DNA from: a virus
Reading direction: 5' to 3' (one strand)
UHGV virus genome: UHGV-0186543
Length of the DNA stretch: 46,602 nucleotides
Shown here: in pieces, positions 2,719 through 46,457 of the stretch
Position numbering within the stretch: the stretch's first letter is position 1
Layout: each line of letters begins with the position of its first letter
The notes under the pieces: generated by a model
Seen by the model: only the letters and a program-made list of their open reading frames with translations
What the model was told of the DNA's origin: nothing
The model's database searches: none
Made by a program: the position numbers and the translations under genes

Positions 2719-4110
2719 TTAAAATGGGTCCGTATTAAAGTTTTTGTTTGAATACCGTTTTTCACGTTTTCTCGGTTGCTCTGCCTCCTTCTGGATGCGT
2801 AATTTTTCGCGTGCTACGTGTTGATCAATTGGCAGGAAATGCCCATTCCGGAATTCCTGATAAATAATTTCACCTGCCCCGCCAGAACGGTTTTTACCGA
2901 TAATCACCTCGGCGATACCCTTTGCAGGTGAATCAGGTGTGTAAACTTCATCGCGGTACAAAAACAAAATGCTGTCAGCGTCCTGCTCAACACTGCCGGA
3001 ATCGCGCAGGTCCGACATCACCGGGCGACGCTGGCCAGCAGGTCGAGAATCCACCTGGCGGGAAAGCTGGCTAAGAGCAAAAACAGGGGTATGCAGACGC
3101 ATGGCCATAGTCTTCATGTTGCGGGAGATATGCCCGACAGCGAGATCGTGGCGCTCGGCCTTCGGTTTTTTGATCAGGCCCATGTAATCAACACCAATCA
3201 ACTTCAGGTGCGGATAACGGCGTTTATGAGTCTCTGCAATGGCGCGGATCTGCTCAATCGTCAAATCAGTGGCATCAACAATCCAGATATCGCGATCCTG
3301 CATGATTGCAAGCGCGGCGGTTAATCTGGTCAAATCCTCATCGTCCATTTCTTTTGGATTACGCAGACGCGACGTGGACATATTCCCAGCCCCGGCAACG
3401 GTACGTTCAACAATCTGCTGAGCGCCCATTTCCATGCTGAAAAACAGTGCGCCGCCGCCATCTGCGGTAACGCCATCGATAATCTTCAGGGTAAATTCCG
3501 TTTTCCCCATGCCTGGACGACCGGCAACCACAACAAGGTCGGTCATGTTGATACCGCCCAGGGCGACATCCAGATCCTCGACTCCGGTTTTCAGCATCAT
3601 TTCCTGCGCGTCGCCAGACATCCGTTTATCAACGGTGTCAATGTAGAGCGGTAACAGCTCTTTGATGTGTACCGGCTGGACTGTGCCGGTAGCGGCGCTC
3701 ATATCCAGCACCTGAGCAACATGAGATTCAATAACCTCATCACGCTGACTCTGGTTTACAGCGTTACGGATACCATCCGCGCCAGATTGCAACAATGCCG
3801 CCATTTTGCGGCTCCGCCATGCCCGCACCATTTTCCCAGCATAGCCTTTCAGATTCGGTACCGTTGCCGGGATCCGGGATATTTGAGACAGATCCGCAAG
3901 GCTGGAACCGCCCAGCGCTTCGCTGATAAACAACATGTCGATCATGCCGTTCGCCAGTGCCTGCTTTTTGATTTCGCTGAAAGCGCGACGGTGAAACACG
4001 ATGCTGAAGGCTTCCTCCGGAGTAGTGGCAATCACATCAAACGCGTCAGGCGTCGCGCCACCGTTAATCAGACCAGCGAGAACGATCGCTTCCAGTTCTT
4101 CTGGATTCAT
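2719..4110 (-). CDS. dnaB: replicative DNA helicase, DnaB family
   Basis: 463 aa with Walker A GRPGMGKTEF, DnaB C-terminal motifs (ALSQLSRQVDSR, LRDSGSVEQDAD) and a DnaB-like N-terminal domain. Confidence 0.9.
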   Translation of the reverse strand: MNPEELEAIVLAGLINGGATPDAFDVIATTPEEAFSIVFHRRAFSEIKKQALANGMIDMLFISEALGGSSLADLSQISRIPATVPNLKGYAGKMVRAWRSRKMAALLQSGADGIRNAVNQSQRDEVIESHVAQVLDMSAATGTVQPVHIKELLPLYIDTVDKRMSGDAQEMMLKTGVEDLDVALGGINMTDLVVVAGRPGMGKTEFTLKIIDGVTADGGGALFFSMEMGAQQIVERTVAGAGNMSTSRLRNPKEMDDEDLTRLTAALAIMQDRDIWIVDATDLTIEQIRAIAETHKRRYPHLKLIGVDYMGLIKKPKAERHDLAVGHISRNMKTMAMRLHTPVFALSQLSRQVDSRPAGQRRPVMSDLRDSGSVEQDADSILFLYRDEVYTPDSPAKGIAEVIIGKNRSGGAGEIIYQEFRNGHFLPIDQHVAREKLRIQKEAEQPRKREKRYSNKNFNTDPF

Positions 4111-35871: not shown

Positions 35872-36164
35872 CAGATAAACTCCTCATCGCGCCAGATAGC
35901 CAGTGTTCTGAAAACTCCCTCAGCGTGCATCAACAGCAATGAGTCGTGCTCGTAATCCGTTTTTGTACGTCCGTCGATAGCATCGTGACACGCACTACAG
36001 GCGATAGCGCCCTGCATATCGTGAGGTTTGATGGCTGTGCCGCACGTTCCGGCGAGACGATAATGAGCCAGTACGCTGGTTTCAGGATTGTGATTGCACA
36101 CACCGGGGATACGCACAGTACAAGCGCGACCACGTGCAGCTTTTCTCAGGTCGATTTTTTTCAT
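35871..36164 (-). CDS. YbcO-like protein (DUF1364)
   Basis: DLRKAARGRACTVRIPGVCNHNPETSVLAHYRLAGTCGTAIKPHD ... IACSACHD closely resembles my recollection of DLP12 YbcO. Confidence 0.7.
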   Translation of the reverse strand: MKKIDLRKAARGRACTVRIPGVCNHNPETSVLAHYRLAGTCGTAIKPHDMQGAIACSACHDAIDGRTKTDYEHDSLLLMHAEGVFRTLAIWRDEEFI

Positions 36165-36757
36165 GATGTGTAATCCAGCAGCTGCGCGGCAGCATTTTCA
36201 GCGGCCTCCTGAGAGGCAAACGTGCGGAACAAAATATAATTCCACAGCACATCTAAAACGGCTGAATACAGTTGACCGAACTCAAGATCGTCCATCGCAG
36301 CAAACGAGATTGAACGAGGTACGCGCATCAAACTGCCGTCTGGCATCTGATGAACGTCATAAAGCCCAGCTTCCATAATCGCCCATGCGCGAAACGCCTC
36401 GAACGACTTCACAGCACTGATATTCCCCGCGCGCTTTTCCGACTCATCGAGAAGATACTGATCAGCCAGCTCTGCCATGACATCACCGTGTCCACCGTAA
36501 TACGCCAGTAACTTAACGTAGCCATGGACCAGTTCGCGCTCCGCAGGAGAAATAGCCCCTCCGGACGGATGCCAGTAATCAAAGCCCAGGTTTAGAAGTG
36601 AGAAAAATTTACGATGAAACGCGGGATTACGCGCCTGTTTGAAATCTGCATACACAACAGCACCTGGTTTGACTCGTTCAGTCAACCAGCGTTGCGTGTC
36701 TGGTGTCGCGGGTATTAGCGAACCGCCGGATACCCTGATAAATGAATGCTGCGCCAT
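36161..36757 (-). CDS. conserved nin-region protein (DUF1367-like, 198 aa)
   Basis: Size and position are typical of conserved ~200-aa lambdoid nin proteins. The family name is from memory only. Confidence 0.5.
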   Translation of the reverse strand: MAQHSFIRVSGGSLIPATPDTQRWLTERVKPGAVVYADFKQARNPAFHRKFFSLLNLGFDYWHPSGGAISPAERELVHGYVKLLAYYGGHGDVMAELADQYLLDESEKRAGNISAVKSFEAFRAWAIMEAGLYDVHQMPDGSLMRVPRSISFAAMDDLEFGQLYSAVLDVLWNYILFRTFASQEAAENAAAQLLDYTS

Positions 36758-36833
36758 GGTTAACTCCAGGTGGCGCGGCAGTGTTCAGAAGTGGTGCTGG
36801 GTGTTCAATCCAGCACCAGTATTATACCGTGTT

Positions 36834-37013
36834 TTACGCTTCAGGGGGTGTAATAGTATATCCAGCTATTTCTGCCAACTCGAGAAACGCCATCAGGCTG
36901 GCAATCCGTTCATCATCAGTCAGAACACGCACACCAACGATGTGTCCGTCCTTACGCTTGATAACAGCCCGGCATGTTTCCGGTAGTTCGCCTATAGATT
37001 CTTGAATATTCAT
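36834..37013 (-). CDS. 59-aa ORF behind a LexA-controlled promoter (candidate small antirepressor)
   Basis: MNIQESIGELPETCRAVIKRKDGHIVGVRVLTDDERIASLMAFLELAEIAGYTITPPEA. SD GGGGGA upstream. Below the ORF-track cutoff. Confidence 0.55.
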   Translation of the reverse strand: MNIQESIGELPETCRAVIKRKDGHIVGVRVLTDDERIASLMAFLELAEIAGYTITPPEA

Positions 37014-37032
37014 GTCTTCCCCCTAACGCCAT

Positions 37033-37070
37033 TGCCTGTACATTTATACAGTATTTTATGGCATTTGTCA
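37033..37070 (-). promoter_or_regulatory. SOS box overlapping a sigma70 promoter
   Basis: gcCTGTacatttatACAGta at 37033-37052 matches CTGT-N8-ACAG and 16/20 of the LexA consensus. Minus-strand promoter ATGACA (37065-37070), 17 nt, TATAAA (37042-47). The box covers the -10. Confidence 0.75.
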
Positions 37071-37164
37071 TAACGCCAGATACAATGAGGGAATAATGAA
37101 CAATTATATTCACGTCGTGAATTTTATTAAATGGTTTTATAGGGGATTAAACCGTTTATGGTCA

Positions 37165-37806
37165 TTATTTATCACTCCTGTAAATTGAAATTAACCATTC
37201 TCTAATCGTCGACGCTGCAGGTGGGTCAGAGTATTTCGCCACAAAAATACCGGATATGTATTGCACACCACGCGATAATGGCGCTGTCGGGTTTTCAGTA
37301 AAAAAACGATCAGCCAGTTCAATGGCTTCGCTTTTTAATCTGTGCTGTGGCCGTCCTCCGCCCTTAGTGCCAAGGTAACGCGCCAGTTGTTTGAAACGGT
37401 AGGCGATGATTAACGGTCGCATCATCATATTGAAAAAATCGCGGGCATCGTTGTCAGCGCCTTGCGCTATCAACAGTGCAAAAAACAGATACGGGATTGT
37501 GTACACTTCAGGAGATATACGAACCCGTTCACAAGTTGGTGGAGCCAATTTAATAAGTAAGTCAGCCTGCGAATTCCCCTTTTCTCCACGTTTGTAATAG
37601 CGATACAGCGGCCCGATATCAAGTTCACTCGCGTCGATTTCAGGATGCCCGGCAACGGCTGTACGTATCTCTTCTGCCAGAGCGTCAAATATTGCTCCGG
37701 TCCGCTCAAGATAGAGCCTCCGGGTCGAACCGCGATCATCCAACGCCCGTAACATATCTAACCGGCTAACGAAAGTTTCAGGCCAGCCCTCATAGAAGGT
37801 TTTCAT
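37165..37806 (-). CDS. hypothetical protein (213 aa)
   Basis: ATG start. First minus-strand gene left of the accessory island. No motif recognised. Confidence 0.6.
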   Translation of the reverse strand: MKTFYEGWPETFVSRLDMLRALDDRGSTRRLYLERTGAIFDALAEEIRTAVAGHPEIDASELDIGPLYRYYKRGEKGNSQADLLIKLAPPTCERVRISPEVYTIPYLFFALLIAQGADNDARDFFNMMMRPLIIAYRFKQLARYLGTKGGGRPQHRLKSEAIELADRFFTENPTAPLSRGVQYISGIFVAKYSDPPAASTIREWLISIYRSDK

Positions 37807-37871
37807 AATTACCTCGAATAAAAAAATTGCATTATTTGCACAATTTATTATTCGTTTTCACATCGCGAAGT

Positions 37872-37902
37872 CTATAAAAAAGAAGACCCGCCGAAGCGGG
37901 TT
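37872..37902 (-). terminator. intrinsic terminator at the left edge of the accessory island
   Basis: Minus strand: AACCCGC-ttcg-GCGGGTC followed by TTCTTTTTTAT. Confidence 0.65.
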
Positions 37903-38119
37903 AGTAAATCATTTGTGCCAAATTATAAGACCACACCGTAAGCTTTTATATGCGTCCTATGGTTATAGCTCATATTATATGCTTCAAAAATATCTATTCT
38001 TTTGTTCTAACGTCAACACCTACCCTTAAAAGATTAATTCTCTAAGAATGAGAGAATGTTGTGTGTATTAGATAAGATATGAGCTGACACATCTATGGCG
38101 TGAAGACAAATTTAATCTG

Positions 38120-38200
38120 ACAGTCCACTTTTTTGCCAGAGCGGATATCGCAAGCGTTAAGTCAGATATTTGAAAACGCATCGTTATCCTGGTTGGGATA
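38120..38200 (+). repeat. R0, degenerate copy of the R repeat
   Basis: TCCACTtttttgccaGAGCGGA hairpin (38124-38146) aligns with the R3 hairpin. ggttgggatac aligns with the G(T/G)GGGAAC block. Confidence 0.5.
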
Positions 38201-38315
38201 CTTGCACTACTTTTAGGCGTACTGCTATCTTGCACAGTTATTCAAAGGTAATTTTTTCTTTATTAGTAGCCTACTTCCAGGGGCTTGTACAACTGACAAA
38301 ACGAGGGAGATCCCC

Positions 38316-39095
38316 ATGAGCAACAAAGATTTTTCACTTTTTTATTTTGCAACCATTGATCGGTCTTACTTCCTCGACAAACACAATTTTTATGTTGCTG
38401 AAGCCAGAAAGCGTCTATTTTCGCAGTTTAGCGATTCTGATCTTGAAGCTGATGCCAGGCAGAGAGAACAAGATTACTATGAGGCCGCCGGTAAGCGTTT
38501 TGACCCCGATTATGACGACGAAGGGGCTATCTGTGAACAGGCTCATGATGAAGGAATTTCACATTGGATTGCTCTCAGTGATATGAAAAATACGGTTTCA
38601 CTTGCTCTGACAGCAGGAATGTTTCATCAGTTCGACAAGGAACTTCGAGAGAAGTGTATCAGAGAATTCAGCCATTGGCTCGACGCTAAATCCGTAACAT
38701 CGATGATCTGGGACATTAGCTTCCCAAGGCTAATTGAAATTCTAGAATGGATTGGGATGGATATCACCAGCAAGGCTTATTACGAAAAAATCGATGCCTG
38801 TCGCCAAGTGGTTAATGTTTATAAGCACGGTGATGGCCATGCCCATCGGGTGCTTTCCGTCGCGCATCCTGAGTATTATCAGGATATCAATATTCCAAGA
38901 GGCTACAGATTTAGTCTACGTCATGAGCAACTTGAGGTTACAGAAACACAGTTTATAGAGTTTGCAGATGCGATTACAGCTTTCTGGAATGATATCCCAA
39001 CATACTGTATGCGCTCAGCTATTCGGGAAGAACCTGAATGGATAAATGGCGAATATAAAAAACATGAGAAGAAAGTTAAAATGCTTCAGGACTAA
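38316..39095 (+). CDS. orphan protein A (259 aa), function unknown
   Basis: ATG with GAGGGAG upstream. About 41% GC by eye. Flanked by R0 and R1. No confident domain (a RQVVNVYKHGDGH segment is only weakly HEPN-like). Confidence 0.7.
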   Translation: MSNKDFSLFYFATIDRSYFLDKHNFYVAEARKRLFSQFSDSDLEADARQREQDYYEAAGKRFDPDYDDEGAICEQAHDEGISHWIALSDMKNTVSLALTAGMFHQFDKELREKCIREFSHWLDAKSVTSMIWDISFPRLIEILEWIGMDITSKAYYEKIDACRQVVNVYKHGDGHAHRVLSVAHPEYYQDINIPRGYRFSLRHEQLEVTETQFIEFADAITAFWNDIPTYCMRSAIREEPEWINGEYKKHEKKVKMLQD

Positions 39096-39180
39096 AATTC
39101 TTGATAATAGCAAGTGTATCCTACATGTAGACATTTGCCTGCCGTGTCTTTTAGCTACCCTAGCTGCGAGAACAATTACG

Positions 39181-39286
39181 AACTTCCGCTCCTCGCTCAC
39201 AGCGAACTTTCAACTCAGTTAGCTTGCCCGCTTCGTACCAAAAGCGGGCATTGCTAACATCTATCTCCATCAATCTGTGGGAACAG
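39181..39286 (+). repeat. R1 structured repeat
   Basis: aacttccgctcctcgctcacagcg block, then an extended hairpin GTTAGC-tt-GCCCGCTT ... AAGCGGGC-att-GCTAAC (39218-39258), ending in gtgggaacag. Confidence 0.85.
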
Positions 39287-39573
39287 CTCGCCGTAATAGC
39301 ACATTGAATTCTATGTCTAAAAGCAGATGATCTGGTTTGCCGGGAAATTTACAAAATGACGGCGTCTCTTGTTAGAGATTCTCCCTGCTTCACACTGCTG
39401 ATTCTTCATGGATTTTAGTATAATTAGTGAAAAAAAATTTTTTGGTTGTTATCATATACATGAGGACTTCTTCAGAGGAACTGAGAAAAATTCGGGGATC
39501 ACTGAACACAATGACAATTAAGAAGATTAACTGTCTGGTAAGTGATTATTTTATTCATTAAAAAACAAACATC

Positions 39574-40236
39574 ATGATAATTGACTTTATAAAAAGCAAG
39601 GAAGCCTTGCTAATATTGGCAATAACTGTTCTATCTTATATGTCTGCAATTTCATTTGAATATGGCTATGCATATCATTTTGATTATCCTATGGAGTTTA
39701 TAACGTTAGATTCTAAATTTTTATTCGTGGGTATGTCATATTTATTTTTTAATATAATTTGTGTTATGTTGATGTTTTTTACTCCATGGCCTGAAAGTAA
39801 AGTAAAAGCAGTTAAAGTTACTGCAGTTACAGTTTTTATCATGATTGTTTTTATTGTTCAGTCTTATAGACATAAGACTGAATATGGTGGTTTTTTCGTT
39901 TTAAGTTTATCGATAGCAACAGTTACTTATATTATATACAAAATTGTTAAAAATCATAAACGTAATCCAAGTTATTTAATTTGGTCTGCAACCCTTCCCC
40001 TTATTGCCATAATGACATTTAGTTTCTTAATTGGTTTACAACAAGCGTCATTAAAAAAAGAATTTAGTTACTTTCATGATCAATCTAAAGACTACGTGAT
40101 TATTAGGTTGTATGACGGTAACCTTGTCGCTAAAGAAGTGAATATAAAAGAGCGCAAGCTAGGGAGTGAGATATTATATATACCTAGCTATAACCCAGCC
40201 CCTATAACGTTAAATAAAATTAAAATAGAACAATAG
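39574..40236 (+). CDS. orphan membrane protein B (220 aa)
   Basis: Very AT-rich. Four to five hydrophobic helices, then a roughly 70-aa soluble C-terminal region. Flanked by R1 and R2. Confidence 0.7.
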   Translation: MIIDFIKSKEALLILAITVLSYMSAISFEYGYAYHFDYPMEFITLDSKFLFVGMSYLFFNIICVMLMFFTPWPESKVKAVKVTAVTVFIMIVFIVQSYRHKTEYGGFFVLSLSIATVTYIIYKIVKNHKRNPSYLIWSATLPLIAIMTFSFLIGLQQASLKKEFSYFHDQSKDYVIIRLYDGNLVAKEVNIKERKLGSEILYIPSYNPAPITLNKIKIEQ

Positions 40237-40379
40237 ATTCATATAGTGGCCTTATGAAAAATAGGTCACTATCGTTGATATTTCATATGAATTTTTAACG
40301 ACCTTGGTAGTAAAATTATCGTAAATCCCCTACATAACAAGACCATTTACTATAGATCTGTTTTACTCTCAATAAAATC

Positions 40380-40480
40380 AACTTCCGCTCCTCGCTCACA
40401 GCGGACCTTCAGTTTTTTGTCCGCTTCGTGTCAGAAGCGGAAGTAGCTAACAACAGCCTATGTTGATTCAAGGGGAACAG
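40380..40480 (+). repeat. R2 structured repeat
   Basis: The first 24 nt are identical to R1. Hairpin TCCGCTTC-gtgtca-GAAGCGGA, then gctaac and aggggaacag. Confidence 0.85.
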
Positions 40481-40572
40481 GTCACTGGGTTAATCTAATT
40501 ATGTCCCTTTAGAACCATCTTTCTTAAGTGAATATATTTTCACTTTATTTTCTACTGCCTCAGTCATAAGGT

Positions 40573-41940
40573 TTATTTTTTGGCTTTTGACATCATGAGA
40601 AGGAAATATGAAGGGTGGCTCTTTATTTCTGAAGAATGGCTTGTAATATTAAAGACATCTTTTAGAATCGTAAAAGCTCCTGTAGCCAACGACACTGGAT
40701 TTGGTGCACCAATAAAACCTATCAATGAAGGCACACTGTTAAGAAAAAGTTCTTTTTTACTCTTCCGCTTATAGGCTTGTATTTTTTGCTCAATATCTGT
40801 CAATCCTTCATCCCACACCCGCTCGACAAAATGTTGATTTATTAGTTGTCTCTTATATGGATCACTTTCTGCTTCTATATCATACGCAGCTTCACGTAGT
40901 ACAGAGCGGAAAGAATTAAAACTCGGCTCGTAGTCAGTTCTAATTTTGTAGAGTTCACTTGGAGTCAGTCCCTCTAAGAATGGAACGTCTATAGAGAGTT
41001 TAACCCTCTGAACTTCATTCTTTTGATCAAGTTTACGAAGAATCTCTCCATGAAACGGGCAATATGCACCCAGGGATGCTCTACATGAATGCGCTTGGTT
41101 AAGGTCAGTAATAAGGTTTTTATAATGAAAGAGAACCGTACGGTTTTTTGCTCCCTGCACCCACCGTTCATAACTTTTTTTTCCGCTATGATTTCCCATG
41201 ACAAGCTCCATAGATATGGAGCCATCATCATTATCAATGGCATTTTTTATATGTTGATACATATATCCATTTGTATATAAACTTTCACAGTCTTTAATTT
41301 CCAACATAATTTCATTCGATAAAACATTTTTGTTTAATAACCGAATTTTATTTGTGTTACCTAGACGTTCTATATTCTTTACGGATAGTCTATTTTCATA
41401 AAGACGGGCAATGTTAGGAGGGAGATATCGATATATAAAATTAGCATCAGAGTTATCGTCTAAAATTCCATTGGCCCTCTCCGAATCTTTAATAGAAGAT
41501 TCGCTTCGTACAAAAACGATAAACTCACCACGGATAAGATCAAAGTTTTCTTTAGCAAACCTGATAAATCTAGCAATTTCCTTCCTGAGATGTTCAACCT
41601 TCTCTTTTCTATCGCTTACAATAATTTTTTCAAATGCATTTTCTGTTAGACTCACTCTGTATCGTAGGCTCAATGAATACAGAACATCATCAAGAATGAC
41701 TCTGTCCATTGAAAACAGTCCACTCTTATACCTTTCAATATTACGATTTCCCGCCATGTAAACATTTAGCCGAGACTCCTGTACAGAATTTGCTTGCTCG
41801 ATAATCAGTGAATCTATTCTTTTATTATATTCATCTAACTCAATTAGCAATTCATTCAATCCAATATTTTCATATTCCTGATCTAAAAGTCGATCAACCC
41901 AGAAAAGGCTTTCTGTGAGGGCATAGAGGTTGTTGTACAT
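40573..41940 (-). CDS. orphan protein C (455 aa), function unknown
   Basis: AT-rich. Own extended -10 promoter (TGTTATAAT, plus-strand coordinates 42028-42036). C-terminal hydrophobic segment LFLNSVPSLIGFIGAPNPVSLATGAFTIL. Flanked by R2 and R3. Confidence 0.75.
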   Translation of the reverse strand: MYNNLYALTESLFWVDRLLDQEYENIGLNELLIELDEYNKRIDSLIIEQANSVQESRLNVYMAGNRNIERYKSGLFSMDRVILDDVLYSLSLRYRVSLTENAFEKIIVSDRKEKVEHLRKEIARFIRFAKENFDLIRGEFIVFVRSESSIKDSERANGILDDNSDANFIYRYLPPNIARLYENRLSVKNIERLGNTNKIRLLNKNVLSNEIMLEIKDCESLYTNGYMYQHIKNAIDNDDGSISMELVMGNHSGKKSYERWVQGAKNRTVLFHYKNLITDLNQAHSCRASLGAYCPFHGEILRKLDQKNEVQRVKLSIDVPFLEGLTPSELYKIRTDYEPSFNSFRSVLREAAYDIEAESDPYKRQLINQHFVERVWDEGLTDIEQKIQAYKRKSKKELFLNSVPSLIGFIGAPNPVSLATGAFTILKDVFNITSHSSEIKSHPSYFLLMMSKAKK

Positions 41941-42092
41941 ATCAGTTCCTTTTTACCAGGCTTCAGTCAGAGTACACTATCATTTTACATTTAAATGTAC
42001 TTCCAAGCATCATGCTGTTAGTGCTGGATTATAACACTTGGCACCCGTATGTTTGGATAACAAACTGCGTATAATCCTTGTGAGTTGTGATG

Positions 42093-42198
42093 TCTGTTTC
42101 TCGCTCACAGCGGGTCTTCAGTTGTTCGTCCACTCTGTGCCAGGAGCGGACATTGATTATTCCTCACTGTAAAAATCTTAATGCTAACTAGTGGGAAC
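42093..42198 (+). repeat. R3 structured repeat
   Basis: Contains ctcgctcacagcg, hairpin GTCCACTC-tgtgcca-GAGCGGAC, gctaac and gtgggaac. TATAAT at 42070-42075 lies just upstream, so R3 would be the 5' leader of the nuclease operon. Confidence 0.8.
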
Positions 42199-42220
42199 TA
42201 TAAGTTGTCAATTGACATGA

Positions 42221-43072
<852 letters not shown>

Positions 43073-43152
43073 CCAATATATGGCAGTAATGAATATTTCG
43101 GGGATCGTGTTTGCCGCGGTCACGGTTACCATTATTAGTGTGCTGAACTGAA

Positions 43153-44388
43153 ATGACTAAGCGAAATAAAACCCCAAAATTTAACTTGGACAAAGCTCGC
43201 AAAAAAGAGATTCGCGCAGCCTTAACCAGCGTGGGTATGACCCCTCAACATGATGGCTGGGCGGATTTGTTTATGTACGCTTATACAGATGGCAGCAATT
43301 TAAACGGTTTGCAATTGGCCAAAGCCTTATCAGTGCATCCAACGCTGATAAATGGTTTATCGCGCGGCATCAAATTAAAACCAGAGAAAGCGCTCTCCAA
43401 AAAACGACCATCAAAACCTACGCTGGCCGATAAACGCCGCGAGGCCAAACAGAAGGTCAATATGGGCTGGGAAGCGCTGATTCGCACTATGCCTATGCAA
43501 AAGCCAGGCGCACGCAAAAACCCTGAAACAGAAGCCCTTTGGGAGAATGCCCGTCGCCGTGGCACGTCCCAGGCCAGCACGCCAGCATTTACGCCGACAA
43601 TCATCCCGCGCAAGGTTTCCGCTCAAATCAACACCGAATTACCAGGCCTGCAATCAACGCAGATGGAAACACCGAAACGGTATGATTCTGTGAGCATGAC
43701 ATCAAAAGTTACGACAAAGCTGGATAATCGCGTCCTACAGGATTTTCTGGCAAAACACATTCCACCCAGCCAGCGTCGTGATGTTGAGCTTTATATCCAC
43801 AAACACCAGCATGAAGCCACCACGACCATTGAACTGGTACAGCGGTACCTGGATGATCAGGAAGAAAAGCAAATCATCCGAGAAGCCGAGAAGCTGGCCG
43901 ATGTTGTTCCGGAACTGGTAGCCGATGATCGAATCATCATGTCGCAGGAAGTAGTGGTCGTCGTGGAGGAAGAGAAACCCGCGCCCGCGCTTGGCCAACC
44001 TGTCAAACTCCACAGTACCCGAACCGCGCAGCGCATCGTTGAGCAGCGCGACGCGACGGCGCATATGCAGTTTGTTGAATGGGTATGGAATAATTTTGCT
44101 GGCCGTTGCGCGGTGACTGGCTGGCAGAACGGCGAACGATTGCAAGCGGCGCACATTGAGCCAGCTACCTCAGGCAATTTTAGCGCTGATAATGGCCTGT
44201 TGTTGACTCCAACGATACACGACTTACTAGACGCAGAGCTGATGGCCGTCAACCCTGAAACAATGACCGTACATTTTGCCCCAGGTATTGAGCTCGGCGC
44301 GATGTTTGAAGGCAAAGTGATTGAGCCTAAATTATGGCCGCTGAACATGGCCGCGTTGGTTAAACGCTGGAAAGAACGGAAATTCTGA
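43153..44388 (+). CDS. protein with a C-terminal HNH (HNH_2-type) nuclease domain
   Basis: 411 aa. GRCAVTGWQNGERLQAAHIEPATSGNFSADNGLLLTPTIHDLLDAELMAV fits the HNH_2 pattern (C.vTG ... L.AAHI.P ... NGLLL ... H.lfD). The ~300-aa basic, low-complexity N-terminal region is unassigned. Confidence 0.75.
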   Translation: MTKRNKTPKFNLDKARKKEIRAALTSVGMTPQHDGWADLFMYAYTDGSNLNGLQLAKALSVHPTLINGLSRGIKLKPEKALSKKRPSKPTLADKRREAKQKVNMGWEALIRTMPMQKPGARKNPETEALWENARRRGTSQASTPAFTPTIIPRKVSAQINTELPGLQSTQMETPKRYDSVSMTSKVTTKLDNRVLQDFLAKHIPPSQRRDVELYIHKHQHEATTTIELVQRYLDDQEEKQIIREAEKLADVVPELVADDRIIMSQEVVVVVEEEKPAPALGQPVKLHSTRTAQRIVEQRDATAHMQFVEWVWNNFAGRCAVTGWQNGERLQAAHIEPATSGNFSADNGLLLTPTIHDLLDAELMAVNPETMTVHFAPGIELGAMFEGKVIEPKLWPLNMAALVKRWKERKF

Positions 44389-44519
44389 TTAAATATTTTA
44401 ATCACCATCGTGCTGGCTGCCATCGCCTATATGGCGTTGCCTCATCACTCGAATCCGAATGCATAATCTTATCCGAGTGGGGAAAGTGCACCACCAAAAC
44501 ATCGAAACAGGAATAGAAA

Positions 44520-45080
44520 ATGAACGGAATATCAAAAATCATCTTAGCACTGACCGCTGGATTTACGCTGTCCGGATGTGTAAGCCATACCCAAAAAAAT
44601 TCACAACCAGATCCGGCTGCAATCGAGGCGGCAAAACTTGCGCAGTACACCGATTCACAGCTTTGCCAGGCAGAAGATAATATAGAGCCATTGCTCAACC
44701 TTAATCCATCATCTCATCCTGAATTTAATGAAAATTATCGCCGCGCCCAGGCTATTAAAAAGGTGATCGCCTCTCGTAATTTAAGCTGCTACCGCCTGAA
44801 AATGGAGAGGGCAGAACAGGCCACACCAGCACGCCCGTTAAGCCCACGACAAAAACAAGCGAGGGCATCCGCTGTTTGCCAGGCTTACGCCCAGCGTACC
44901 CGATTTGCGGATCCGACAGTCACATTTCAGATGTGCGGGAAAGGATTCCAGTCTACTTCGGCAAAATGTAAGGAAGATTTGGCGAGTTTTGAACGTGAGT
45001 CTCAGAAACTTAGAGGTACGGCCAGAGCGGAATATGTTGAAATTAGCAGTGCATTTCGGGCAGGCTGTGCTTTAAAATAA
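44520..45080 (+). CDS. lipoprotein (186 aa)
   Basis: Signal peptide plus lipobox FTLSGC. Several Cys residues. No other motif recognised. Confidence 0.7.
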   Translation: MNGISKIILALTAGFTLSGCVSHTQKNSQPDPAAIEAAKLAQYTDSQLCQAEDNIEPLLNLNPSSHPEFNENYRRAQAIKKVIASRNLSCYRLKMERAEQATPARPLSPRQKQARASAVCQAYAQRTRFADPTVTFQMCGKGFQSTSAKCKEDLASFERESQKLRGTARAEYVEISSAFRAGCALK

Positions 45081-45533
45081 AAAATGAAGTAATATTAATA
45101 ACGCAATTGAATTTAAAAAAAATCAATGCCTACTCGGTGCCATATACAGCCATGGTTATTAACAGCAGGGAATAATTCCACACTGAAATTAAATGTCTGC
45201 CTTTTACAGTAGAAATAGTTTCTCCAGGACACTATCCATTGCCGGGCACAATCACTCGGGGTATAACGATATAAAATATGTTCATGATAGTGCAGGTTCG
45301 TATATTAAGTTCAGCAGCGAAAACATGCCTTACAGGTTTCCGGTTTTGGGAGCGTCGTTACAGGATCCTGCGCATACCGTTCCCATCTGTTGAATTAAAG
45401 GTTTCACAGCCTTTGCCGATATCGCCTTTTACCTTGCCTGTGATGCGTTCAGTGCTCAGCGTTGTTTACTGTAGCTCTCGGGACTGATTACAGACCGCGT
45501 CTTAAAAACCAATCCTTACTCTAAAGGGAATTC

Positions 45534-46457
45534 ATGAGATTAAAATACTCAGTACTCTTACTCGCCATTGCCCTTACAGGCTGTGATAACAAAAAAGATG
45601 AGATCGGTTGTTCTTCGGAAATAACCCAGTCAGCTCTCATGGATTTATTAAAAAAATCTGCTTATGAAGGACTCTCTGAACAGGTCGATAAATACCCTGA
45701 TGTCACTAATCAGACCAAACGAAGCACATTGGACAAGATCAAACTAGCCATCTCTGAGATCTCCACAACATCAAGTGACACGGGCAGCACAATGAAAACT
45801 TGTGAAGGGACCGTGACGATGACTCTATCTGCGAACGAGTACGTCCAGCTTTCAGATGCTTACAGAAAGAATTTTAATCGTAATCTCGACAAGCAAATGG
45901 AAAGCCTGTTTTTGGAGAACAACGCAAACGCCTTTTCCAAACGTATCACCTACACCGTGCAGGCGACCGACGATCAGAAAAACGTTTTTGTAAAAACCTC
46001 TTCTGATAATCCGATATCAGTGGGCGCCGCTTTACTGACATCACTTTCTATTATCAACCCGATCGTTGAGCAGCAGAAAATCCAGCAGGCTAAGGATGCC
46101 CAACAGAGCCAAATTGAAGCGGAACAACAGGTGCAACTCAGGGCGCAGGAACAGGCTAAGTATGAGGCGGAGAAGCAAATAGAGAGACAGGCACAACTTC
46201 AGCCACAAAAAGCTGACAGCCTTGATCAGTCCCGAATGGCATTTGCGAATGCCGACTCTGATTTGAGTACCGTCTGGAGCAAGTTAACCCCGGCGAAGAA
46301 AAAAGATTTGCTGCCTTCTCAGCGTCAGTGGATCAAAACTAAGGATGCTATGTGCGGTAAAGTTTCAATGCAGGGAACAGATGCTGAAGTCAAGAAAATG
46401 CTCGACTGCCAGACGCAAATGACCCTTTCAAGAATCGCTTTCCTCAGAAACCAATAA
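45534..46457 (+). CDS. lipoprotein with a C-terminal DUF1311/LprI-like domain
   Basis: Lipobox IALTGC. A Gln/Glu-rich coiled coil. The C-terminal LPSQRQWIKTKDAMCGK ... MLDCQTQMTLSRIAFL fits the QR.W...RD..C ... C....T..R...L pattern. Confidence 0.75.
   Translation: MRLKYSVLLLAIALTGCDNKKDEIGCSSEITQSALMDLLKKSAYEGLSEQVDKYPDVTNQTKRSTLDKIKLAISEISTTSSDTGSTMKTCEGTVTMTLSANEYVQLSDAYRKNFNRNLDKQMESLFLENNANAFSKRITYTVQATDDQKNVFVKTSSDNPISVGAALLTSLSIINPIVEQQKIQQAKDAQQSQIEAEQQVQLRAQEQAKYEAEKQIERQAQLQPQKADSLDQSRMAFANADSDLSTVWSKLTPAKKKDLLPSQRQWIKTKDAMCGKVSMQGTDAEVKKMLDCQTQMTLSRIAFLRNQ

Follow-up and report, generated by a model that had tools for sequence, protein, structure and literature searches.

Repeats in a temperate prophage as probable junctions of a mobile, two-site cassette array

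The virus genome UHGV-0186543, a stretch of 46,602 nucleotides referred to here as the window, carries a series of repeats that bracket AT-rich genes. We favor, with moderate confidence, the reading that these repeats are the junctions of a mobile cassette array, that each junction contains two distinct 24-base-pair (bp) recombination sites, and that the enzyme most likely to act on them is a tyrosine recombinase of ~200 amino acids supplied in trans. Comparison among sequences documents the anatomy of the sites, the grammar of the arrays, the turnover of their cargo, breaks in homology at the sites, and a clade-specific link between the sites and one recombinase gene.

The three full copies of the repeat in the window, R1, R2 and R3, are units of approximately 100 to 110 bp. 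Each unit consists of a site A, a spacer of 12-18 nucleotides, a site B, and a tail of about 45 nucleotides that we call module C. Site A has the consensus GTCCGCT-CCTCGCTCAC-AGCGGAC, in which a 7-bp arm and its inverted counterpart enclose a 10-nucleotide core. Site B (GTCCGCT-CTGTGCCAGA-AGCGGAC) has the same arms as site A and a different core. Module C follows the consensus GTTGCTAAC … GGGGAACAGGTCA.

A preliminary description of this DNA had reported a 24-nucleotide block, AACTTCCGCTCCTCGCTCACAGCG, that is identical in R1 and R2, and it is indeed found at 39181-39204 and 40380-40403. The portion said to be kept in R3, CTCGCTCACAGCG, occurs exactly three times in 46.6 kilobases (kb), at 39192, 40391 and 42100, always on the plus strand. 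The GCTAAC and G(T/G)GGGAAC blocks described after each copy are also present and correspond to module C. Four copies of ~100 bp had been counted, and R1 to R3 are correctly placed, but R0, described as a degenerate full copy, is a half-site B joined to a separate boundary motif, X. The 'nuclease operon' that the proposed layout places beyond R3 belongs to the array. A fifth, decayed copy of B and C at 45128-45180 indicates that the array extends past 42200 and includes this operon. The array therefore holds at least five cassettes, among them GIY-YIG and HNH genes. The left side of each cassette is a B site and the right side is an A site, regardless of the direction of the gene.

Relatives of these units are widespread in mobile DNA. 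Searching 5,426 complete E. coli genomes with R2 by blastn yields R2-like units in 792 (~15%), with 1-4 places in each genome and a median of 1. The matches fall only in variable regions; no overlap with annotated features was noticed, the matches themselves carrying no annotation. All E. coli contexts examined are prophages or islands, such as CP4-like islands, a tRNA-Leu island that carries restriction genes, and another that holds a large gene for a DEAD-box helicase. The preliminary description had allowed for a host repeat family of the REP, ERIC or insertion sequence (IS)-end type scattered through chromosomes. Low copy number and confinement to mobile elements rule out a host REP/ERIC/BIME-like repeat.

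Units are found in P2-like phages, in lambdoid and Shiga toxin (Stx) prophages, in E. coli islands and in many Enterobacterales. The P2-like phages carry them between tail genes G and FI, at the Z/fun hotspot. A pattern scan of IMG/VR combined with a hidden Markov model adds 72 viral contigs with units, and 49 of these have two or more. In the genome scan, the A site is present in Erwinia, Pantoea, Rahnella, Klebsiella, Citrobacter, Enterobacter, Yersinia, Serratia, Morganella and Pectobacterium, and also in Alteromonas and Idiomarina, with site densities of up to ten per 8 kb in genome loci. No neighboring gene is conserved across the phage loci, and the integrases of the islands and phages vary from locus to locus.

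The arrays obey a simple grammar, [X+B] cassette [A-spacer-B-C] cassette … [A+Y], where Y is the inverse of X. The order B … A-B … A-B … A holds in the 49 loci with at least two units and in 97 genome loci. All units of an array share one orientation, and motif X is common to otherwise unrelated mobile elements.

Cargo between the units hardly ever recurs, and it frequently consists of defense genes. The preliminary description had suspected a cassette array or exchange hotspot, and had noted that this idea would fail if related phages always carried the same three genes, with neither cargo turnover nor covariation in the hairpin. Unrelated cargo is found between the same units, and neither of the outcomes named there as refutations is observed. 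Two sister prophages, in W284 and in the sequence type 131 (ST131) strain EC958, keep the left flank gene of the window and its LprI/ORF6N right flank, but carry other genes between them. The 85 open reading frames (ORFs) located between units fall into 79 clusters at 40% identity; 50 of these ORFs have the same direction as the unit and 35 are opposite.

Homology between related arrays breaks at the sites. On the right side, similarity to the window begins at 45130 in W284, inside site B4, and at 45122 in EC958, just before B4; upstream of this point, the A site differs from genome to genome or is lacking. On the left side, the X+B block is common to the window and EC958, and divergence starts in or just after B0. 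The homology of cassette 3 with O157:H7 islands stops at A3. Only two hybrid cores are present, CCGT-GC-GAGG in locus L003 (5707-5776) and CTGA-GC-CAGT in locus L126 (~7179, minus strand). An inversion between an A and a B site, with the crossover in the central GC that both have in common, would leave such cores. With only two examples, they carry no weight as crossover footprints.

The character of the cargo varies with the setting. The bracketed DNA in the window is 34-36% G+C compared with 45-55% elsewhere, in agreement with the AT-rich cassettes first described. The GIY-YIG protein of the window is the known anti-phage gene product PD-T4-3 (PADLOC E = 6e-138). The adjoining HNH_2 protein (411 amino acids) has only a weak match in the defense library, and the remaining cargo of the window has no informative match. 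Cargo recognized by PADLOC elsewhere in the family includes ThsB, SduA, PD-T7-1, PD-T7-5, PDC-S35, PDC-S39, PDC-S51, TmtA, MkoA and nuclease effectors. On the chromosomes of environmental Enterobacterales, the cargo consists of LysR regulators, short-chain dehydrogenases, transporters and similar genes.

A candidate enzyme was found by clustering all ORFs of the genome loci. One family, present in eight loci of different genera, encodes a protein of ~200 amino acids that matches the Pfam family Phage_integrase and has the motifs LRG, HSMRR, LGH and RY. In the seven copies examined closely, the gene resides between A and B, where ordinary units hold the spacer. The layout is a1-coreA-AAGGGAC, a 33-nucleotide leader, the gene, its stop codon, a hairpin, and then GTGCCAGG-AGCGGAC. 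Altogether, nine intact or frameshifted copies lie between A and B, in seven genome loci (Phytobacter, Rahnella, Erwinia, Yersinia and others) and in E. coli ATCC 25922 and NIPH17_0020. The two E. coli arrays, which belong to a CP4-like island in ATCC 25922 and a Rac-like prophage in NIPH17_0020, read B, cassette, A, [gene], B, cassette, A …. In all contexts examined, among them marine, Providencia and Idiomarina ones and IMG/VR contigs, the stop codon is followed by a B half-site.

The association between this gene and the sites is specific to one clade. Among 26 loci picked only because they encode the recombinase at ≥80% identity, 22 contain further canonical sites, for a total of 51 in 313 kb. 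No such site occurs in 220 kb of background DNA, and a single one occurs in 74 kb of loci from a more distant recombinase clade (55-66% identity), which is flanked by its own inverted repeats. The gene is present in 961 of the 5,426 E. coli genomes and is 90-95% identical in DNA to an Erwinia copy, which indicates that it has spread recently. No solved or named relatives of the protein were found, only sub-threshold matches to Xer proteins, integron integrases and invertases.

The palindromes of the A and B sites appear to be recognized as sequence rather than as structure. The preliminary description had stated that the hairpin arms change together between copies, and this is weak at best. 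The three 8-mers that it quoted largely represent a single conserved palindrome read in different registers, and R1 to R3 show a single compensated pair (GCCCGCT/AGCGGGC in R1) and one mismatch (R3). Depending on which pairing is considered, 29 curated A-B units show 3-6 compensated pairs versus roughly 40 or more uncompensated. Shuffling of the right arms gives p = 0.36-0.6 for strict sets and 0.007-0.03 for loose sets. Pairing was also assessed with 95 B sites that were chosen by their core and its distance from the A core, and not by their arms. Here 75.7% of cells pair compared with 73.8% in shuffles (1/500), and the covariation score is 0.175 compared with 0.150 (8/500), while count-based covariation measures are not significant. 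A contingency test at the single arm position that is polymorphic is significant for none of the four possible arm pairings. A covarying hairpin was therefore rejected: the arms are conserved and the excess of compensation is marginal.

Spacing and core identity are much more constrained. Consensus arms are separated by 10 nucleotides in 239 sites, compared with 50-69 sites for separations of 8, 9, 11 or 12. The 10-nucleotide cores are the most conserved part of the units and are of two kinds only. This gives a 7-10-7 site layout, or 8-8-8 if each arm is taken to include one more base. Tyrosine recombinase core sites such as lox, FRT, dif and the λ core sites are built in this way, with inverted arms on either side of an asymmetric spacer of fixed length. 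Since the spacer is always 10 nucleotides long and of two kinds, and the arms are conserved, the sequences point to sites recognized by a protein rather than to an RNA or an element defined by structure alone.

These observations suggest a scheme for how the arrays might change. Recombination between like sites (A x A or B x B), either on two molecules or on a circle and an array, would allow single cassettes to be swapped, added or removed. The small tyrosine recombinase would act in trans on the sites of the array. In this manner, phages, satellites and islands could trade defense and other accessory genes. The scheme would resemble an integron, or recombinase-mediated cassette exchange in which the two sites are incompatible. 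Because the window holds no recombinase gene, its array resembles an attC cluster that lacks an integron. What the sequences show is that the sites lie together with, and in a clade-specific way co-occur with, a gene of the Phage_integrase family; we infer that the recombinase cuts A and B, and likewise where strands are exchanged and which segment moves.

More tentatively, with a little less than an even chance, the window may be one array of an undescribed, integron-like gene-capture system of Gammaproteobacteria. In such a system, a dedicated recombinase of ~200 amino acids, nested between two heterospecific 24-bp sites, would exchange cassettes one at a time between P2-like phages, prophages of the lambdoid and Stx types, CP4-type islands and arrays on chromosomes. 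In E. coli the cargo would be anti-phage genes; in environmental Enterobacterales it would be regulators and small metabolic genes. If so, it would provide the mechanism so far lacking for the quick exchange of defense systems, free of pseudogenes, at phage 'hotspots', and the site pair together with the candidate enzyme makes this mechanism experimentally testable. The B … A-B … A grammar also offers a handle for finding cassettes, and with them new defense or accessory genes, across thousands of genomes, in the way that integron cassettes are mined through their attC sites. If the A and B cores prove incompatible, these arrays would be a natural counterpart of engineered heterospecific lox/FRT exchange, and the very small recombinase might be useful.

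Several observations weigh against site-specific exchange by this enzyme. All of the support comes from comparing sequences. Of 120 loci picked by their sites, only 11 have the recombinase gene, whole or as remnants, within 8 kb of the sites, which would leave the majority of arrays to rely on an enzyme that is far away or missing. The gene is lacking in the window and in all the phage and E. coli loci first collected with the repeat (L001-L149). The flanks of the gene are themselves diverged half-sites (AAGGGAC and AGCAGCC arms), and the protein is almost without an N-terminal DNA-binding domain and has no characterized relative. The gene could be one more passenger, or A-gene-B could be an IS-like element with miniature A-spacer-B copies. 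Breakpoints fall near or inside the sites with no fixed nucleotide, a pattern that homologous recombination also predicts. Cassette 4 has no closing A site, and the O157 homologue of cassette 3 is fused to an upstream gene of 172 amino acids with no unit between them.

The main rival to site-specific recombination is homology-driven exchange through conserved linkers. Here the units, as ~110-bp stretches of portable homology, would be used by host RecA or by phage recombinases of the Red/RecT type for ordinary or relaxed homologous recombination. Crossovers joining units of different elements would swap cassettes, and circles excised between two units could re-enter at any unit. The palindromes would serve some other function, such as insulation or protein binding, and the small recombinase would be cargo. 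We consider this rather unlikely, although it accommodates breakpoints that do not share a single nucleotide, the scarcity of nearby recombinase genes, and the cassette junctions without a unit, as in O157. Identity blocks of 20-30 nucleotides among units, for example the R1/R2 24-mer, also fit such exchange. It leaves unexplained why the spacer is exactly 10 nucleotides and of two kinds, with one arm consensus across Enterobacterales and Alteromonadales, and why arrays end in half-sites, with B on one side and A on the other. Nor does it account for a recombinase gene placed precisely between A and B, or for its clade-specific co-occurrence with the sites.

It is improbable, but worth weighing, that A-recombinase-B is an IS-like element with imperfect inverted repeats (GTCCGCTyCTsGCwCA…) and that A-spacer-B units are its miniature, non-autonomous copies. 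These would insert between the genes of AT-rich variable regions, and the 'cassettes' would simply be the DNA between insertions. When read by eye in the enterobacterial clade, the left end (a1 + core A) matches the reverse-complemented right end (core B + b2) at ~17 of 20 positions; generic local alignment of the two flanks of the gene in this clade does not score above shuffles. The inverted repeats that flank a recombinase clade of 55-62% identity, the gene fragments beside B sites, which suggest decay of full elements, and the recent spread of the gene between Erwinia and E. coli all agree with mobile units. Whole-unit insertion does not predict the lone B and A half-sites joined to X and Y at array ends, however, and sister prophages differ by whole cassettes rather than by the presence or absence of units in otherwise identical DNA. 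No target-site duplication or unit-only insertion or deletion was seen, although no systematic search was made.

Alternatively, the units might act as folded elements, either as structured RNA (a terminator, insulator, processing site or small RNA) or as single-stranded DNA recognized by shape, as attC is. Such RNA or shape-only readings are unlikely, and we assign them only a very slight probability. The units do fold better than shuffles on both strands (z -2.0 to -5.2), and A can pair with B to form a single long, imperfect, attC-like hairpin. There is also the slight excess of pairing and covariation noted above, and Stx-phage B arms (GTCTACT/AGTAGAT) are doubly compensated relative to the consensus. 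However, uncompensated changes outnumber compensated ones by ~10:1, the 'loops', which are unpaired, are more conserved than any other part, and the attC R''/R' consensus is absent. Neither strand is favored, since G·T mismatches are about as frequent as A·C mismatches, and unit orientation is constant whatever the direction of the genes. No unit matches an Rfam family at the gathering score. At E ≤ 10, only CRISPR-DR28 touches a unit (39224-39255, 23 bits versus a gathering score of 35), which we take as chance, and a known RNA family was rejected for lack of Rfam support. As stated in the preliminary description, the repeats are not plain terminators: no T-run follows the hairpins, and neither terminator-like nor promoter-like calls occur inside any unit, so both of these assignments were rejected.

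The window as a whole is a temperate prophage that combines regulation of the lambdoid type with tail genes of the P2 type. The phage genes are on the minus strand. The array, with its four or five junctions (Table 1), lies between DUF1367/Q-side genes (36161-37806) and the replication side. When positions 37800-42300 are compared with complete E. coli genomes, they are 99.4-99.5% identical to E24377A, SE11 and four others.

Table 1. Features of the cassette array in the window
Feature	Position	Strand	Basis or similarity
Boundary motif X (…TGAGCTGACACATCTATGGC…TTTAATCTGACA), ~65 nucleotides, left edge of the array	38057..38122	+	Aligns with the left edge of a P2-like Z/fun locus (L001) and with the EC958 prophage (L149); annotated 'left inverted repeat' in AJ512680
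Site B0, lone half-site of R0: GTCCACT-TTTTTGCCAG-AGCGGAT, spacer decayed	38123..38146	+	Aligns with B of L001 and L149; arrays elsewhere also begin with a lone B
Cassette 1 gene, 259 amino acids	38316..39095	+	No Pfam or PADLOC match
Site A1: TTCCGCT-CCTCGCTCAC-AGCGAAC	39184..39207	+	Sequence
Site B1: GCCCGCT-TCGTACCAAA-AGCGGGC, 18 nucleotides past A1	39226..39249	+	Sequence
Module C1 (ATTGCTAAC…TGTGGGAACAGC)	39250..39290	+	Sequence
Cassette 2 gene, 220 amino acids, hydrophobic	39574..40236	+	Weak sub-threshold 7TMR-DISM_7TM match only
Site A2: TTCCGCT-CCTCGCTCAC-AGCGGAC	40383..40406	+	Sequence
Site B2: GTCCGCT-TCGTGTCAGA-AGCGGAA, 12 nucleotides past A2	40419..40442	+	Sequence
Module C2 (GTAGCTAACAACAG…GGGGAACAGGTCAC)	40443..40487	+	Sequence
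Cassette 3 gene, 455 amino acids, inverted	40573..41940	-	No family match; 91% identity in O157:H7 CP4-like islands
Site A3: GTCTGTT-TCTCGCTCAC-AGCGGGT, arms decayed	42092..42115	+	O157 cassette 3 homology stops here
Site B3: GTCCACT-CTGTGCCAGG-AGCGGAC	42128..42151	+	Sequence
Module C3, ~30-nucleotide insertion ahead of GCTAAC…GTGGGAAC	42152..42200	+	Sequence
Cassette 4: PD-T4-3 GIY-YIG gene (42266-43072), HNH_2 protein (43153-44388), 186-amino acid ORF (44520-45080)	42266..45080	+	Without closing A site
Decayed site B4 (GCCTACT-CGGTGCCATA-TACAGCC) and C tail	45128..45180	+	Sister-prophage homology begins here
Last cassette seen: LprI-family gene	45534..46457	+	Common to sister prophages W284 and EC958

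Some additional features of these loci are worth recording. The E24377A copy of the prophage (L002, 8894-10860) has a portal gene split by the IS21-like element ISEc62 and is therefore probably defective. At the far end of the prophage, positions 873-1070 of the minus strand encode C4 antisense RNA (873-958), isrK (983-1057) and the target element c4-a1b1 (1018-1070), all above Rfam gathering thresholds, which together make up an antisense immunity module of the P1/P7 type. There are no tRNA genes in the window. In O157:H7 strain 17B6-2 (L127, 7181-9720), the cassette 3 homologue resides in a CP4-like island beside a type I restriction-modification system with an embedded DarTG. Stx1a- and Stx2c-converting phages (for the latter, Stx2c phage LC727878, L348, 5046-6898) carry X+B, a single ORF of 517 amino acids and a decayed A directly beside the integrase.

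A scan for an 'empty site', in which X would be joined directly to Y, gave only an IS481-like subterminal hairpin and one unrelated hairpin, and this idea was dropped. The inner part of X (38095-38122; AGATCyAAACCTAATCTGACAGTCC) is nearly identical to the IS481-like subterminal hairpin region (TGTAGAAGATCAAACCTAATCTGACAGTCCCCCG…CTGTCAGATTA; loci L128-L147, for example L142:6553-6620). The transposase of this IS481-like element has HTH_29 and rve domains.

Part of this family has been seen before. The outer repeats of the P2 'Z-region' (Z/fun) were annotated as left and right inverted repeats by Nilsson, Karlsson and Haggård-Ljungquist in 2004 (AJ512676-AJ512680). In the P2-EC46 entry AJ512680, the left inverted repeat (3-115) corresponds to X+B and the right one (3166-3256) to A+Y. 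Positions 38057-38146 of the window align with X+B of L001 and of AJ512680, the A sites of the window match the CTCGCTCAAAGCAGAC core of the right repeat, and both sets of repeats flank variable, AT-rich 'lysogenic conversion' genes. By annotation, however, the Z-region has one outer pair of repeats between tail genes G and FI of P2-like phages, whereas the window has internal A-B junctions in a five-cassette array of a lambdoid-type prophage. An unannotated internal unit, a decayed A followed by B and C, is also present between ORF1 and ORF2 of AJ512680 (L280, 1580-1680), which indicates that multi-cassette arrays occur at the P2 Z locus as well.

A sentence in a review states that the P2 Z-region repeats enable site-specific recombination (PMC8987985). 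Our literature search, in which earlier knowledge was taken from this sentence and from the GenBank annotation, gave no account of internal A-B junctions, of arrays outside P2, or of this recombinase. The two-site anatomy, the grammar, the spread through Enterobacterales and the candidate recombinase are thus absent from the Z-region annotation and from the literature found. Recent surveys of defense hotspots, covering P2-like phages, P4-like satellites and islands, emphasize how fast intact systems are swapped. These papers propose cos-end or homologous recombination, leave the mechanism open, and do not mention the repeats described here.

Several known systems share elements of this organization. 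REP, BIME and ERIC sequences are also short, intergenic, imperfect palindromes, but they have a different consensus and are present in tens to hundreds of copies across core chromosomes, compared with 1-4 places per genome for the window family. In engineered cassette exchange, heterospecific lox or FRT sites (13-8-13) are used with the well-characterized recombinases Cre or Flp. There, too, a cassette lies between two sites that share arms and differ in their spacer, each site recombines only with its like, and a double crossover swaps the cassette. That system is artificial, whereas the incompatibility of the A and B cores is predicted from their sequences alone.

Integrons and clusters of attC sites lacking integron integrases (CALINs) consist of cassettes, mostly of one or two genes, with imperfect palindromes of ~60-140 bp between them. 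They show extreme cargo turnover, are presumed to be driven by a tyrosine recombinase, and often lack the enzyme, all as in the arrays described here. Unlike integrons, the window has no IntI-type integrase or attI at the head of its array and no integrase gene in or beside it. R''/R' boxes (RYYYAAC/GTTRRRY) are absent by inspection, and it is the sequence of the sites that is conserved, whereas attC conserves structure only. Each junction has two distinct sites, arrays end in half-sites, genes occur in either orientation (as with the inverted cassette 3), and the candidate recombinase gene is inside a junction rather than at the array head.

The pdif modules of Acinetobacter plasmids rely on 28-bp dif-like sites (11-6-11) that are used by the host XerCD recombinase. 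They likewise consist of small gene modules on mobile elements, separated by short sites of the tyrosine recombinase core type that alternate in form, with the enzyme encoded elsewhere. The window sites differ in length (24 bp, 7-10-7), in sequence and in taxonomic range, and they have a dedicated candidate enzyme of 200 amino acids. In sum, these repeats have the character of a site-specific cassette array that is related in kind to integrons and to pdif modules, and its outer repeats were noticed twenty years ago.

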